A DNA stretch of 64,000 nt from the NCBI GenBank assembly GCA_033286805.1, contig GCA_033286805.1_4727.1; one strand, given 5' to 3'. The stretch comes from a phage. Below are positions 3,627-64,000 of this stretch, piece after piece (position 1 is the first letter of the stretch; each line of letters opens with the position of its first letter). Position numbers and translations under genes: made by a program. The notes beneath the pieces were generated by a model. It saw only the letters and a program-made list of their open reading frames with translations. It was not told the origin of the DNA and did not search any database.

Positions 3627-3706
3627 AACCCCTTTATAAGCAACTGAGTGAAAAAAAGCGTTACATTCCCGCTTTTACGTCAAGAAGGTGACGCGTAAGC
3701 GTTATA

Positions 3707-4438
3707 TCACCATTCATACGATCCGGCGCACTGATGCCCCAACAGTACCAACGCGTCGTCTTTGGCCGCCAGATATTTTTCTAACGTTATCCGTGAAACG
3801 GACACATTAGAGAAATCCATCACACCTAAGCGATGATCGTAATGGTTAATTTGCATCCGGTAGTAACCTTTCTTTACCACCAGAAACTCGCCTTGACGCA
3901 ACCATAGCGGAACGTCGCCAACCTCCGCATGGATATAAAACACCGGACATTCTGTCGTAACGGAGTTTTCCTTCCCATCGCTATCTGTAATCTTCCCTTT
4001 GGGAACAGCCGCGATAAAACATTCTCCGATACGCTCGGTTTGATACCCGTTTGGATAGCGCGGATCGTGAAATAACCAATGCTCATCGCTAATATCCACA
4101 TCGGATAATAACGTACGATGTGGACGTAAGGCGATATCAAACGGAACACGATAGATAACGTACCCACCTAACCAATGGGCTAAGTGACCACCGGAATAGT
4201 ACTGCTTGATTGCGGTACTGTATCCGTATATACAACCCATCAAACTGCTAGATACACAGATCCTTGGAAACGATCCGTCTTCCATACGCAAGGTACGTTG
4301 TGGGATACGCGGCATCATCGTTTTCAGTTCGGTATCGGTGCTAATATGCAATAAACCGAAAGGAAGCGTTTTGCTCGGCACCCACGCACAACGTTCCATA
4401 ATCGATCTTGGGACAATAGTCTCGATAGACGATAACAT
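3707..4438 (-). CDS. hypothetical protein (243 aa)
   Basis: Long ORF; 1-nt gap to the upstream gene suggests translational coupling. Confidence 0.5.
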   Translation of the reverse strand: MLSSIETIVPRSIMERCAWVPSKTLPFGLLHISTDTELKTMMPRIPQRTLRMEDGSFPRICVSSSLMGCIYGYSTAIKQYYSGGHLAHWLGGYVIYRVPFDIALRPHRTLLSDVDISDEHWLFHDPRYPNGYQTERIGECFIAAVPKGKITDSDGKENSVTTECPVFYIHAEVGDVPLWLRQGEFLVVKKGYYRMQINHYDHRLGVMDFSNVSVSRITLEKYLAAKDDALVLLGHQCAGSYEW

Positions 4439-23087: not shown

Positions 23088-23104
23088 TATTCACTGCATA
23101 AACC

Positions 23105-23136
23105 CCCTCTCCCAACCCGTAGGGGAAGGGAGAGGG
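23105..23136. terminator. Conserved stem-loop family member (CCCTCTCCC aa CCC gtag GGG aa GGGAGAGGG) between convergent genes
   Basis: Inverted repeat read directly; same architecture as the hairpins at 40118, 51964 and 63924. Confidence 0.55.
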
Positions 23137-23142
23137 AATATG

Positions 23143-24212: not shown

Positions 24213-24249
24213 CGTCCTCCTGAAAAAGAAAAAAGAAATACGGCATAAA

Positions 24250-24275
24250 GCCTACCCACACAATGGTGGGTAGGC
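24250..24275 (-). terminator. Intrinsic terminator on the minus strand (GCCTACCCAC...GTGGGTAGGC, then T-rich tract)
   Basis: Perfect 10-bp stem; minus strand continues TTTATGCCGTATTTCTTTTTTCTTTTT. Confidence 0.6.
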
Positions 24276-24292
24276 TAAGATCAACATCGATG

Positions 24293-28161: not shown

Positions 28162-28503
28162 CTATTGTCGTGTCTGTTGCGGAAATACCCGAAACACCTG
28201 GACAATGATGTTCTTGTCCTCGCGGTTGGCGATGTCGATCATGTGTTTTGTTCCAGGACTTTTGAAATCCCAGAACGCAATTAAATGCGTAATGACATCG
28301 CCCATCCACTCATTGCGTCTGAATCCAGCACCTTTACGATAAGGGCCATCCCAATCGGCAGGAAACGTGGTGTATTTGAACCCGTAATCCTTCGCATAGC
28401 GGCGCACATGCAAATCAGCACCTGAATGCGCACCGCCAGCAATGAGATGAACCTTGTCGTGAGGAAGGTTGTGTAACATCTGGTTCATACGCTTTTCGAA
28501 CAA
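28162..28503 (-). CDS. SLOG-fold protein, DUF2493/YspA-like (possibly N-terminally longer, to about 28611)
   Basis: HLIAGGAHSGADLHVRRYA...FPADWDG...GAGFRRNEWM...HLIAFWDFKSPGTKHMIDIA matches the recalled GGARGAD...FPADW...GPIRN...AFPGG...GT pattern; the frame stays open upstream and encodes a further RVGVSGSRYWDD strand but has no ATG. Confidence 0.55.
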   Translation of the reverse strand: MFEKRMNQMLHNLPHDKVHLIAGGAHSGADLHVRRYAKDYGFKYTTFPADWDGPYRKGAGFRRNEWMGDVITHLIAFWDFKSPGTKHMIDIANREDKNIIVQVFRVFPQQTRQ

Positions 28504-31329: not shown

Positions 31330-31365
31330 CCCACCCTACTACCCCGTTAAGGGCGGTAGGGTGGG
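31330..31365. terminator. Stem-loop (CCCACCCTAC...GTAGGGTGGG) between convergent genes, followed by TAAGGTTTATTTG
   Basis: 10-bp stem with inner CCCC-GTTAA-GGG. Confidence 0.55.
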
Positions 31366-35966: not shown

Positions 35967-35998
35967 CCCTCCTCCTTCCCTGTTGGGTTGGAGGAGGG
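35967..35998. terminator. Conserved stem-loop family member in inverted orientation (CCCTCCTCC...GGAGGAGGG) between convergent genes
   Basis: Reverse complement is nearly identical to the hairpins at 51964 and 63924. Confidence 0.55.
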
Positions 35999-36786: not shown

Positions 36787-37221
36787 TTATGTTTTAATAT
36801 GCACATCGTCAATCCCCTCGGTAATCCAGCCGATGGGAAGGACAATCGTTGTTATCGTGTTATGGGTGTAATGATTGAGAAAGTGGAAATAGTAATTTTT
36901 GTTAGACTGTTCGATCCGTAGGTCGAGGTGCGCGTCTTCAGGTAACCGTAACCAAGCACCGTACAGTTCATTAAACTTACGCTGAATTTTACCGGGGTTC
37001 ATTGGAACCCCACGACCACGACGATGTAGCTGACGTAATGATTCAATCAAACACTCAGAGATACCCGTTGTCGTTCCGTTATCGCTTGTATCAATAACGA
37101 TGAACTCTCGTGACCCACGACCGAGATAAAAGCCAGCGACAAAAGCTGCAGCAACAAAAATTATCGTACCGATACCAATATACCAATAGTAAGTATCCAT
37201 AACGACCTCACTTATACCCAA
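36787..37221 (-). CDS. small membrane protein (about 140 aa)
   Basis: N-terminal hydrophobic helix YYWYIGIGTIIFVAAAFVAGFYLG. Confidence 0.5.
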   Translation of the reverse strand: MGISEVVMDTYYWYIGIGTIIFVAAAFVAGFYLGRGSREFIVIDTSDNGTTTGISECLIESLRQLHRRGRGVPMNPGKIQRKFNELYGAWLRLPEDAHLDLRIEQSNKNYYFHFLNHYTHNTITTIVLPIGWITEGIDDVHIKT

Positions 37222-37787
37222 TAGTCGGCAAGCGGTTTTACCTTATTAATGGGCAACTGTACTTTACCGATGTTCTCTACATCCGCATCAGCGTAGAGAA
37301 CAATTTTATCATCGTCTCTTTCCCAACGAATAATAAATCGACCAGGAAGAAGATTACTCTGTTCAAGAGACGCAGTAACCTGCTGCGTCAAAACAGACAA
37401 CCAAGCAGGCATCAATGTTGCAATATCTAAGTCATTTGACCACTCAGCACGTTGCTCCACTGGACGTAACATACGTTCGACGGTGCGTTGAACCGTTGCG
37501 GTGATATAGCCTTTATCTTCGTCACTGATTGGATCAGGACGAGACACAAAACGTTCAGCAGGCTTGTGGGTAATATATTCATGCAAATCGATGAGTGGTG
37601 TTGTCATAGTACTCGCTCCATCAGAATGTAATTGGGTAACCCGTAGGGTTGTCTGCATGCTATTCAGAAGCGCAAAAGCGCCATAAACAACAACGATACC
37701 AAGTATAGCCAAAACAGAAATCATTAACGTGTATTGCATTGTCATCTCCCCTACATACGCATCTTGAAGATCGGTTAAAAACAACAA
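37212..37787 (-). CDS. membrane protein (about 190 aa)
   Basis: N-terminal hydrophobic helix LMISVLAILGIVVVYGAFALL. Confidence 0.5.
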   Translation of the reverse strand: MLFLTDLQDAYVGEMTMQYTLMISVLAILGIVVVYGAFALLNSMQTTLRVTQLHSDGASTMTTPLIDLHEYITHKPAERFVSRPDPISDEDKGYITATVQRTVERMLRPVEQRAEWSNDLDIATLMPAWLSVLTQQVTASLEQSNLLPGRFIIRWERDDDKIVLYADADVENIGKVQLPINKVKPLADYWV

Positions 37788-37840: not shown

Positions 37841-38497
37841 TTAGCTTGCAGCTTCTTCATTTGTATCAGGTTTGCTTCCCCCTAACAAACCGTCAAACAG
37901 ACCCGTATGTTTCAGGTAGAAGAGAGCGATAGCGCCCATTGCTGCTGCGCTCGTCGCCGTTAACGCAACCCCAGCACGATACTGCCATTTACGGTCAGGC
38001 TTTTGATCAAGAGCCATACGACGCATGTATTCAGCCTCTGCTTCATTCCGATGAATTTCGGATTCAGCCAAGCGGGCTAAGGTATCGCGGTCAAGGTTAT
38101 CATAACGTACGTTCATGGTGGTTTCCTCTTGTTTGGAAGTTGATTGCTTAGTGGATTCTTGGTCAACAGTCGTTTCAGATGGTTCAAACGGCTGGTTGTT
38201 CATTTTCTGATCTTTATTGGTCATGATAGACTCCTTCGATTTTTGAGATGAAATTGATTTAAACCATCGTGGATGGCGGTATTCAGTTTTACATGTGCAG
38301 TTAAGTTTCTCGTGCAGGAAAGCGTAAAAACGTTTTGCGCCTACACGTAAGGCTTTCAGCATTACCCATCCACGAGCACTCAAACGGTGTAGCTGTTGCG
38401 GTATGTCTAGTTTCCTAGCCAAGCGAAAGTATCTTTCAATCACTTCGATAGGAAACCATTGTTGTTCCACATCGGTGAGACTGAAAGTCTTATCCAT
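37841..38497 (-). CDS. hypothetical protein with C-terminal transmembrane helix (possibly two genes, internal start near 38224)
   Basis: Internal ATG at 38224 preceded by AAGGAG; C-terminal hydrophobic GVALTATSAAAMGAIALFYL. Confidence 0.45.
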   Translation of the reverse strand: MDKTFSLTDVEQQWFPIEVIERYFRLARKLDIPQQLHRLSARGWVMLKALRVGAKRFYAFLHEKLNCTCKTEYRHPRWFKSISSQKSKESIMTNKDQKMNNQPFEPSETTVDQESTKQSTSKQEETTMNVRYDNLDRDTLARLAESEIHRNEAEAEYMRRMALDQKPDRKWQYRAGVALTATSAAAMGAIALFYLKHTGLFDGLLGGSKPDTNEEAAS

Positions 38498-38519
38498 GAA
38501 TGAAATCTCGCTGGCTTAC

Positions 38520-38541
38520 TTCACTTAAGTAATATAGCCGT
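38520..38541 (-). promoter_or_regulatory. Promoter-like conserved motif, copy 3 (tcacttaagtaatatagccgtg)
   Basis: Near-identical over about 24 nt to copy 4 at 51230; 23 nt upstream of the minus gene start at 38497. Confidence 0.45.
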
Positions 38542-38629
38542 GAAAAATGTTGGAATAAGTTAAATACCGCAACCGCAGCTAATTTTATAGGCTTTTAGCC
38601 TAAACCAATCATCTTCGGAATCATCATCT

Positions 38630-39469
38630 TTGAAACAGGAATCTATCATGGAAAAAGTATTTGTTTGTAAGCTGTTTACCAACGGCAATAGCCAACCAAT
38701 GTACCTGACCGATCCAGTTCTAGGTAATCGGAACAGCACCGTATTCAAAGAAGCTTTCGAATACGCTAAAAATAAAGCCGTGAGAACACTGACGTCCGAT
38801 GACTGTATCAACGGTATCACGTGGGCGGAGTTATTCGGTGATGCTGTTAGACACTTCGTTCGGGACGCAAGAAAACGGGAAATCTGTCTCACGACTATCG
38901 TTGTGCGTGAAAATGCAGAAATTTTATCAAACGTTTTGGTTGATTTTAATGACGTTTGCGTGTTTAATCCAGAGAACACGTTTGAACAATATCTTACTGC
39001 CCTGAACAACCAGCTCGGTAAAGATATTCATCCCGAATTCGCCAAGTTAACATATCAGTTACTTTTTGACGACGTCGATCCAAATACGAAGATCGATACC
39101 AGCTTATCGCCCCTGGTAAAGAAATACGGATCGGTTCTCGCTACGGCAACACCCACCACCGATGGCGGTTATGATATCGAATTGGATGGTCCATTAAAAG
39201 AACAAGAGCCTACTGGGGTTAGGGCGGTACATCACAACCTCGTCGTTAAATCTGATGGGTGCGATGAACATTACGCTATGATAAACGATGAAAACAATTA
39301 CCGTTTAAGTCAAGCGATTGGTGTTCTACGCTATACCGAACCCACTGTTGTAGACGATTATACATCGACAACAACGCACACCACGTGTTTCATTTTCATC
39401 TATCCCAATGAAAGTGTGTACATTACTGACTGCTACGGCAATACCGTAGATAGCTTACGTCGTTACTAA
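38630..39469 (+). CDS. hypothetical protein (279 aa)
   Basis: Long ORF followed by a terminator. Confidence 0.55.
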   Translation: MKQESIMEKVFVCKLFTNGNSQPMYLTDPVLGNRNSTVFKEAFEYAKNKAVRTLTSDDCINGITWAELFGDAVRHFVRDARKREICLTTIVVRENAEILSNVLVDFNDVCVFNPENTFEQYLTALNNQLGKDIHPEFAKLTYQLLFDDVDPNTKIDTSLSPLVKKYGSVLATATPTTDGGYDIELDGPLKEQEPTGVRAVHHNLVVKSDGCDEHYAMINDENNYRLSQAIGVLRYTEPTVVDDYTSTTTHTTCFIFIYPNESVYITDCYGNTVDSLRRY

Positions 39470-39473
39470 TCGT

Positions 39474-39505
39474 CGAGCCTGTCCTTCGGGGCAGGCTTTT
39501 ATGCT
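39474..39505 (+). terminator. Intrinsic terminator (GCCTGTCC-TTCG-GGGCAGGC, then TTTTATG)
   Basis: 9-bp stem with UUCG tetraloop plus T-tract immediately after the stop at 39469. Confidence 0.7.
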
Positions 39506-39571
39506 GTTAAATATCAGGAATAAGAATTAACAAAATAGGAAAATGGTGTGAATATAACACAAAGGAGGGAG

Positions 39572-39694
39572 ATGATCATGTTACTCATTTTAATGGAGAG
39601 AGCATTGCTGGCGGGTATCTGCGCATTCTCTGTTAAACACGCTGTTGCTATCATGGCTGAAGAAAGGCGTAATACGCATAATGTATTACGCTGA
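39572..39694 (+). CDS. small hydrophobic peptide (40 aa), unannotated in the ORF track
   Basis: AAAGGAGGGAG directly before the ATG; translation MIMLLILMERALLAGICAFSVKHAVAIMAEERRNTHNVLR. Confidence 0.4.
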   Translation: MIMLLILMERALLAGICAFSVKHAVAIMAEERRNTHNVLR

Positions 39695-39804
39695 AAACAC
39701 TGTGTGCATTAGTGTATGACGAGAAATCGTCGAGGCCCCCGTCTTCACGAGGGCCAACACCTATGCATGATTATTCATCGTCTGTTAAACAAAAGGTTAT
39801 AAAC

Positions 39805-40113
39805 ATGAGCAATTTGAACGTTGAATTTACTTCAACAACGCCTGTCATGAATGGTGTTGGCACTGAAACCAAAATCGTATTAGAACCCATTCCAGGGTTA
39901 CGCGATCTCGGTGATTTTTATCCACTGATGCCGCGTATACGGAAGGCCTTAAACAGTATCGATCTTGATTCCAATAAAGATTTCCAACACGATACAGAAA
40001 ATACCGATCATGTATTGCTGCCATCAGGGATCGCAAAATTCACCTACACGCAAACATTGAAAGCCTCCGATGGTGAAATCCGTCGTTTTATCGTTGAAGT
40101 AGAAAGCGCATAA
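39805..40113 (+). CDS. hypothetical protein (about 102 aa)
   Basis: Start placed at ATG 39805 (MSNLNVEF...); ORF track begins at 39712. Confidence 0.45.
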   Translation: MSNLNVEFTSTTPVMNGVGTETKIVLEPIPGLRDLGDFYPLMPRIRKALNSIDLDSNKDFQHDTENTDHVLLPSGIAKFTYTQTLKASDGEIRRFIVEVESA

Positions 40114-40117
40114 AAAC

Positions 40118-40149
40118 CATCCTCCCAACCCGTAAGGGAAGGGAGGATG
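40118..40149. terminator. Conserved stem-loop family member (CATCCTCCC aa CCC GTAA GGG aa GGGAGGATG) between convergent genes
   Basis: 9-bp outer stem, A-A internal loop, inner CCC/GGG closed by GUAA (GNRA-type) tetraloop. Confidence 0.6.
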
Positions 40150-40166
40150 AAATATGCCGTTAAACG

Positions 40167-40808
40167 TTATTCAACAAACCCTGCATTCAACAGATTGTCG
40201 TAAACACGATTAGCGACATCAACAGGAGAATGTGTGTTACTGGTATCTATACGCAGCGTTTTCGCGTCGCCGAGATAGTCCATAAAATCCATGTAACGAT
40301 AACGTCGTTTATTGAATGTCGCTTCATCGATGTTATCAAACATCTGATGTTTAGCGTGACGAACACGGAACCGTCTTAAATACGTAGGATAGTCAATATC
40401 CAGATAAACATAGTAAGACGGCATGATAATCGACGGTAGGTTCGGCAACAACGCGTCAAACAGCTTAACGTTGGCATCATTAACCTGGTAAACATACGTC
40501 GAAGCAATCGAACGATCGCTAAGCACAGTTTTCCCTTCGTTAAGGGCTGGATGAATCACCTTGTTGAAGAGATGATTACGTTGCGACATCATCGCCAACA
40601 GCTCGGTTTCCGGATCGAATCTGTTTGTTGGTGTTTGGTCTTCCAGGATAAGTTTACGAATGGCTTCTCCGTAGAGAGTACCACCGGGTTCACGTACGAC
40701 ACAGACATTGTTTAAACGGCTGTGTAAAGACGAGATAACCGAACTCTTTCCTGAATAATCCAAACCTTCAATAACGATATACTTATTACGAGACATTCCC
40801 CGCTCCAA
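40167..40808 (-). CDS. tmk: thymidylate (dTMP) kinase
   Basis: KYIVIEGLDYSGKSS P-loop and REPGGT...GE.IR lid match E. coli Tmk (KYIVIEGLEGAGKTT...REPGGT); true start probably the internal MSRNKY. Confidence 0.8.
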   Translation of the reverse strand: MERGMSRNKYIVIEGLDYSGKSSVISSLHSRLNNVCVVREPGGTLYGEAIRKLILEDQTPTNRFDPETELLAMMSQRNHLFNKVIHPALNEGKTVLSDRSIASTYVYQVNDANVKLFDALLPNLPSIIMPSYYVYLDIDYPTYLRRFRVRHAKHQMFDNIDEATFNKRRYRYMDFMDYLGDAKTLRIDTSNTHSPVDVANRVYDNLLNAGFVE

Positions 40809-51229: not shown

Positions 51230-51257
51230 CTATCACTTAGGTAATATAGTCGTGAAA
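51230..51257 (-). promoter_or_regulatory. Promoter-like conserved motif, copy 4 (ctatcacttaggtaatatagtcgtgaaa)
   Basis: About 80 nt upstream of the start at 51150; shares extended identity with copy 3. Confidence 0.45.
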
Positions 51258-51963: not shown

Positions 51964-51995
51964 CCTTCCTCCAACCCAACAGGGAAGGAGGAAGG
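51964..51995. terminator. Conserved stem-loop family member (CCTTCCTCC aacccaacaggg aa GGAGGAAGG) at the 3' end of gene 52012..52905
   Basis: Near-identical to the reverse complement of the 35967 hairpin and to the 63924 hairpin. Confidence 0.55.
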
Positions 51996-63923: not shown

Positions 63924-63955
63924 ACCCTCCTCCAACCCGTAAGGGAAGGAGGAGG
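63924..63955. terminator. Conserved stem-loop family member (CCCTCCTCC aa CCC GTAA GGG aa GGAGGAGGG)
   Basis: 9-bp outer stem, GUAA tetraloop on an inner CCC/GGG stem; immediately after the stop at 63914. Confidence 0.6.
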
Positions 63956-64000
63956 GAATATGCTGTTATGCTACATATAAGGTTAGATAACCATCGATGA

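Follow-up and report, generated by a model that had tools for sequence, protein, structure and literature searches.

Goslar-like phages probably carry a genuine small gene, gp006, between two virion-protein genes

Membrane events in nucleus-forming phages, such as those at the early infection vesicle and at lysis, are poorly understood. Among holins and antiholins, the phage lambda proteins S105/S107 combine a short hydrophobic helix and a charged C-terminal end with two in-frame starts two codons apart (Met-Lys-Met). The type I toxins of enterobacteria (Hok, Ldr, TisB, Ibs, and ShoB) are proteins of about 20-50 amino acids with a single hydrophobic helix, encoded in strongly structured mRNA regions at chromosomal or plasmid addiction loci; the helix of TisB contains charged residues. 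Phage phiKZ has short autonomous single-gene units ('moron'-like) that are bracketed by a hairpin and (T)TATG, and the terminator motif of this phage, GGBYTTATKYYGT, is a hairpin with TTAT(K)YYGT (PMC10914365).

We analyzed a small open reading frame (ORF) in a 64,000-nucleotide stretch of phage DNA (hereafter, the window). About 1.6 kb around the ORF share 97.5% identity with the DNA of Escherichia phage vB_EcoM_Goslar, a nucleus-forming jumbo phage of E. coli (Goslarvirus), and the gap region (window 39400-39830) is 97.7% identical. The stop codon of gp005 at 39469 and the start of gp007 at 39805 leave a gap of 335 nt, in which the ORF runs on the + strand from a first ATG at 39572, through a second in-frame ATG at 39578, to a TGA at 39692-39694. 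Its full translation from 39572 is MIMLLILMERALLAGICAFSVKHAVAIMAEERRNTHNVLR. The elements of the locus are as follows.

39475-39503, + strand: T1, the terminator after gp005, with a 10-bp GC-rich hairpin (39475-39498), a T-run, and TATG (39500-39503)
39504-39560, + strand: AT-rich spacer, the presumed 5' leader or promoter region of the small gene
39561-39571, + strand: Shine-Dalgarno (SD) sequence AAAGGAGGGAG, with the 7-nt core AAGGAGG at 39562-39568
39572-39577, + strand: upstream in-frame ATG and one further codon, probably untranslated leader outside the protein
39578-39694 (including the stop), + strand: coding sequence of 38 amino acids, MLLILMERALLAGICAFSVKHAVAIMAEERRNTHNVLR, the Goslar gp006 orthologue
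39666-39692, + strand: hairpin A, with an 11-bp stem, a perfect 9-bp core (39667-39675 / 39683-39691), and a 5-nt loop
39705-39766, + strand: nearly invariant block, with a 5-bp hairpin (39718-39731), hairpin B (39734-39755), and TATG (39762-39765)
39805-40113, + strand: gp007, 102 amino acids, an abundant Goslar virion-associated protein

The original prediction, made from the letters of the window, reported an unannotated 40-codon ORF with a strong SD sequence. The ORF and its SD are present exactly as described, but it is not unannotated in the public relative, because the 38-residue product is 100% identical to the hypothetical protein Goslar_00006 / HOV27_gp006 (QBO63799.1, YP_009820691.1, UniRef100_A0A482GK72). 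The small ORF is thus already catalogued in GenBank and RefSeq as Goslar gp006. Both ORFs occupy the same place between gp005 and gp007 behind the same upstream terminator (the start at 39578 corresponds to Goslar 3610), and the two bases that differ between window and Goslar in the ORF region are synonymous or untranslated. An exact look-up found the 38-amino-acid sequence on 433 public contigs, and nine other database representatives are all 38 amino acids long and 84-97% identical to the window product. Most likely, then, we are dealing with an ordinary orphan gene restricted to Goslar-like phages. As found, it matters little, being a catalogued orphan of a well-studied model jumbo phage; what we add is comparative evidence of protein-level selection and a correction of the start codon.

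The start had been placed at 39572, but the second ATG is the probable beginning of the protein, and the product is then 38 amino acids long. The SD core AAGGAGG is separated by 9 nt from the ATG at 39578 and by only 3 nt from that at 39572, the codon after the first ATG varies among relatives (I, T, or N), and the second ATG is used by the Goslar annotation and by most metagenome gene calls (all nine database representatives). In one lineage this second start is GTG. Few SD matches in the window equal the AAGGAGG of the small ORF: a 7-nt match is reached by only 2 of 58 ORFs of at least 150 codons, with the best-SD start picked for each. The core GGAG/GAGG is kept in 18/18 versions of the locus despite five substitution events in the SD.

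ORF length alone is uninformative, because 31% of dinucleotide shuffles of the gap yield a + strand ATG ORF of at least 38 codons. This result suits the alternative that the ORF is fortuitous and gives no functional protein, in which case the SD would be incidental and the gap would be the structured 3' end of gp005 and/or a leader or control region of gp007. Another caveat pointing the same way is that AAGGAGG occurs 11 times in the window and that 10 of the 11 copies lack a following ORF of at least 30 codons. Against a fortuitous ORF, only 0.8% of the shuffles paired an ORF of 38 or more codons with a 5-mer SD core lying 3-16 nt upstream, and the SD core persists in all versions.

We collected 18 distinct DNA versions of the locus by four routes: protein look-ups, relatives of gp005, a relative of gp007, and exact matches to the downstream hairpin among viral and metagenome contigs. 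All 18 preserve the start, stop, and length of the ORF and have no indels in it, and the frame is also intact in the loci obtained independently of the ORF (via gp005, gp007, or the downstream hairpin). The reading frame, whose absence from related genomes had been named as grounds for dropping the prediction, is therefore conserved. Intactness says little at this divergence, because relocating the observed substitutions creates no stop in 84% of simulations, a result with which a fortuitous ORF is equally comfortable. The same gene order (gp005 or a remnant of it, the ORF, gp007, and thymidylate kinase downstream) is found in Goslar and in the loci L005, L007, L009, and L010, and in L008 and L011 as far as their contigs extend. 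In L007 (ENA ERZ28649724 scaffold_1, 3634-4000, compared with window 38640-39420), two deletions have cut gp005 to short remnants, a decay that has spared the terminator, the small ORF, the hairpins, and gp007. The L011/L022 contig (GCA_002832795.1, MAVE01000409.1) is a 1.36-kb sequence in a bacterial assembly that contains Goslar-like phage DNA with rearrangements and is probably contamination or a chimeric assembly. L011 had appeared as an '82%' gp007 relative, a reading that was discarded: it is a near-identical contig in which the gp007 frame is disrupted, apparently by assembly indels.

The substitutions themselves are more telling, although the evolutionary tests rest on about 28 events, as all relatives are closely related. 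The ORF contains 14 synonymous events against 8.9 expected (P=0.03), and the events are distributed 11:4:13 over the three codon positions, a deficit at the second position (4/28) that, like the synonymous excess, disfavors a fortuitous ORF. For the two most diverged lineages of the set, the Nei-Gojobori pN/pS ratio is 0.11 (L021; Fisher p=3e-4) and 0.13 (L019; p=1e-3), against 0.4-2.6 in four of the five other frames; at the same divergence the flanking genes give 0.20 (gp005) and 0.10-0.13 (gp007). The L005 lineage shows no constraint (pN/pS 0.89), as a fortuitous ORF would predict. Amino-acid changes common to several sequences are mostly conservative (A/T, M/I, R/K), and in the common variants they cluster at residues 23-31, with residues 1-22 and the C-terminal NTHNVLR essentially fixed. 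No indel falls in the 117-nt ORF, whereas five distinct indel sites lie elsewhere in the gap, a difference that tells only weakly against a fortuitous ORF (P about 0.12, our own estimate). In two lineages this substitution pattern, read from aligned DNA, points to purifying selection acting on the protein. All considered, we judge it likely that the small ORF is a real protein-coding gene, and rather unlikely that it is a chance frame.

A 46-codon ORF read on the minus strand (from 39654 to 39514) overlaps the small gene and its SD, and we asked whether it could be the functional gene, with the + strand ORF as its shadow. It is open in the window and its pN/pS against L021 is 0.11 (p=3e-4), but this value mimics that of the small gene because the third-codon (wobble) positions are shared. 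Against L019 the ratio rises to 0.31, and against L005 and L016 the signal is absent. The antisense ATG is preceded by CTTTCTTCAGCC, which holds no SD; the stop is replaced in 7/18 versions; radical changes (F/S, Y/C, P/T) occur outside the overlap with the + strand ORF; and transcription would oppose the direction of the gp005-gp007 island. A functional antisense gene is accordingly extremely improbable.

The most constrained element of the gap is not the ORF but the block at 39705-39766, whose 62 nt carry a single substitution event, whereas the 87 nt of the ORF body carry 14 (Fisher p=0.004, in the 10 loci not selected through hairpin B). The spacer at 39501-39560 changes at 0.15 substitutions per nt (unbiased set), as slowly as the ORF body. 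Both observations favor a fortuitous ORF, as does the folding of the region, since 39655-39815 forms three hairpins and folds much better than its shuffles (z=-4.0). Directly upstream of gp007, the adjacent 39767-39804 is hypervariable and rich in indels (11 events in 38 nt, 10 loci). Metagenome gene callers extend gp007 through part of this segment (39763-39804) to 116 amino acids from an ATG at 39763; the extension crosses 1-nt indels and dense substitutions, so the start at 39805, used in the Goslar annotation and giving 102 amino acids, is the credible one. The block itself probably serves as the terminator of the small gene and/or as an upstream control element of gp007, judging from its sequence.

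Hairpin A spans the last nine codons and the first base of the stop. It has three substitutions, all compatible with the structure: G39666A turns a G-U into an A-U pair, C39668T replaces C-G with U-G, and T39679C is a loop change; A39665G, the fourth event counted, is just outside the stem. These changes are too few to prove selection on the structure. The minimum free energy fold also paired the start region (39572-39580) with 39766-39774, recalling the fold-back inhibition of hok, which we rejected because an AT-to-GC change at 39767-39768 in seven relatives breaks a pair and is uncompensated.

The position of hairpin A raises the question of a leader ORF, in which translation itself would matter: ribosomes would unwind hairpin A, remodel the downstream hairpins, and so tune gp007. 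That hairpin A ends at the stop codon, that two more hairpins follow before gp007, and that a near-invariant block separates ORF and gp007 would all fit, and gp007, being present in many copies per virion, may plausibly require controlled expression. The Goslar virion proteome gives about 250 copies of gp007 and about 8 of gp005 per virion (bioRxiv 10.64898/2026.04.21.720040, Table S4), so that both immediate neighbors of the small gene are virion proteins. Nevertheless, an ORF that was purely a leader would not be expected to show the amino-acid selection seen in L021 and L019, its stop lies about 110 nt and a terminator-like element away from the gp007 start, and the last 38 nt before gp007 are hypervariable. 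Moreover, translation-coupled attenuation is impossible once transcription is confined to the phage nucleus, as is established for chimalliviruses (PMC12908238). We therefore consider a leader ORF very unlikely, and return to a translated gene whose protein matters.

Transcription signals around this gene were examined through the recurrent pairing of hairpins with TATG. T1 is an annotated terminator in Goslar, has no substitutions in the 18 versions (a 1-nt indel occurs in two), and matches the phiKZ terminator motif almost exactly (GGCTTTTATGCTGT). It also fits a phage-wide signature: TATG follows a strong GC-rich hairpin within 9 nt in 17 of 74 cases, whereas the 289 TATG sites in 128,000 positions would predict about 1.5. 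Such sites are found at 14-50, 2637-2676, 23102-23139, 24249-24288, 28399-28436, 31330-31365, 35967-35998, 39475-39498, 40117-40150, 51964-51995, and 63925-63956, several of them on both strands, and bidirectional terminators have hairpin and TATG on both sides. Hairpin B (GGCCC.CGU-CUUC-ACG.GGGCC, with TATG at +7) resembles this signature. Compared with phiKZ terminators, this putative terminator is weaker, has no T-run, and places 6 nt between hairpin and TATG.

TATG is also the late transcription-start motif of phiKZ, and terminators and late starts may be coupled. The TATG after T1 was considered as a late promoter for the ORF, a reading that we downgraded because bidirectional terminators carry hairpin and TATG on both sides, where no gene follows, and because TATG lies within the phiKZ terminator motif (PMC10914365). 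The spacer at 39504-39560 contains neither a sigma-70-like site nor the early-promoter-like motif TATATTAC. No sigma-70-like promoter was found on either strand of the gap, and the only such site in 38400-40400 lies inside gp005 on the minus strand (38949-38921); promoters of phage RNA polymerases are unpredictable. Rfam, sRNA families included, gave no match within the gap (39470-39804), and a fortuitous ORF would need none. AATCGTCGAG, which precedes both hairpins, was set aside, as it is no more frequent in the window than chance would give. An RNA-seq study of Goslar reports expression classes (Armbruster et al., bioRxiv 10.1101/2023.09.20.558163).

The protein had been predicted to be a single helix, and AlphaFold2, run with the family alignment, agrees, giving one helix over residues 2-37 with a mean pLDDT of 84. 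The residues E7, R8, K20, and H21 break up its hydrophobic stretch, and no more than 11 consecutive residues are uncharged. The Kyte-Doolittle mean over 19 residues peaks at 1.97 (threshold 1.6), we estimate the Hessa-scale sum at +2.3 kcal/mol or more, and the amphipathic moment is low. The basic tail that had been noted, EERRNTHNVLR, has a net charge of only +1 by our own count, and the whole peptide has +2. The model thus depicts a hydrophobic helix that is not a textbook transmembrane segment, and membrane insertion is uncertain because charges interrupt the helix and the longest uncharged run is so short. If the gene is real, we put the chances that gp006 is membrane-associated at about even. 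Among the peptides of the 38-residue product are ALLAGICAFSVK and HAVAIMAEER; the part of the Goslar virion proteome table available to us (bioRxiv 10.64898/2026.04.21.720040) has no gp006 entry or tryptic peptide, a result also in keeping with a fortuitous ORF.

Database searches returned essentially the family itself. With tblastn against 50,697 phage records only Goslar matched; a word-indexed search of 5.8 billion proteins gave only relatives at 84-97% identity; and an exhaustive HMMER profile search of 1.84 billion representatives recovered the family and P0012, a repeat-derived junk protein that we dismissed as a chance match rather than a distant homologue. Pfam, PHROGs, and NCBIfam, holin models included, gave no match even at E<=1-10, and PDB sequences had no match to the peptide. 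No DNA similar to the small gene was detected in 5,426 E. coli genomes, and a host origin was discarded on this ground; a repeat or mobile element was likewise discarded, the region having no significant repeats within the window. Synteny could not be traced further, because gp007 has no relatives outside Goslar-like phages and the sole distant relative of gp005 (27% identity, Erwinia phage pEa_SNUABM_9) sits in unrelated, tRNA-rich surroundings that hold no small ORF of this kind.

These searches and the neighborhood lend no support to the suggestion that the peptide acts as a holin, antiholin, toxin, or regulator. Like lambda S105/S107, gp006 is a short hydrophobic helix with a charged C-terminal end and two in-frame starts two codons apart (ATG-ATC-ATG). 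The residue between the two methionines is isoleucine (threonine or asparagine in relatives) and not basic as in the lambda-S-type dual start, only 3 nt separate the first ATG from the SD, and the helix is interrupted by charges. Nor does gp006 have a holin family match or a neighboring lysozyme or spanin: within about 4 kb, no endolysin, spanin, or lysozyme domains were detected in the neighboring genes, which have DUF7194, thymidylate kinase, RuvC, and SMC_N domains or none. Supposing that the gene is real, a holin or lysis-timing role has a slim chance at best. The likeness to type I toxins lies in size, in the single hydrophobic helix, which contains charged residues as TisB does, and in a strongly structured mRNA region. 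However, gp006 has no sequence or model match to Hok, Ldr, TisB, Ibs, ShoB, or Fst and no similar E. coli DNA, and the gene lies between virion genes of a lytic jumbo phage rather than in a chromosomal or plasmid addiction locus; the scan for sigma-70-like promoters found no antisense site in the gap. The short single-gene units of phiKZ, bracketed by hairpin and (T)TATG as gp006 is, offer the remaining parallel.

Taken as a whole, we favor, with moderate confidence and from sequence comparison, the reading that the ORF is a genuine translated gene, the orthologue of Goslar gp006, organized as a self-contained cassette and encoding a helical protein. The strong ribosome-binding site would drive initiation at the ATG at 39578, and the 38-residue product would form one continuous, mostly hydrophobic alpha-helix. 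The cassette would lie between two virion-protein genes, bounded upstream by the gp005 terminator and downstream by three hairpins, the last of which is followed by TATG as at other putative terminators of the phage; we infer this architecture from the hairpin-TATG signature and by analogy with the phiKZ terminator motif (PMC10914365). The helix may insert into or associate with a membrane, or pack against a partner protein, and it would probably be oligomeric, because charged residues interrupt its hydrophobic stretch. A membrane-associated accessory helix would be the most plausible mode of action, with gp006 presumably acting as a non-core accessory factor of Goslar-like phages. Very few small accessory proteins of nucleus-forming phages have a defined role, and gp006 would join them if it proved membrane-active. 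A more elaborate version is quite unlikely: a dual-function cassette confined to nucleus-forming phages of the Goslar type, in which a membrane-active helix would target membranes of the host or of the early infection vesicle (in superinfection exclusion, the handling of vesicles, or the timing of lysis, for instance), and the RNA hairpin in the last codons would, with the 62-nt block, control message stability or gp007 output. Independently of the protein, the hairpin-TATG signature and the invariant block could guide the annotation of transcription units in Goslar-like phages.

Several further features were observed in the surrounding DNA. Three consecutive minus-strand genes beside the small ORF, gp002 (36787-37221), gp003 (37212-37787), and gp004 (37841-38497), each contain one hydrophobic, transmembrane-like segment, N-terminal in gp002 and gp003 and C-terminal in gp004, and the locus therefore appears rich in putative membrane proteins. 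The TATATTAC motif occurs with conserved flanks, (g/a)cTATATTACct(a)a, at 51248, 38536, 25416, and 1729 (position of its first base), all on the minus strand; we take it to resemble the core of the early (virion RNA polymerase) promoter of phiKZ. The copy at 38536 lies just upstream of gp004, and none lies in the gap. The octamer CTGTTAAA has four copies in the window, three of them within 280 nt on the + strand (39504, 39630, and 39782), and the third is not conserved among relatives. Finally, TATATTACC occurs six times against 0.56 expected.
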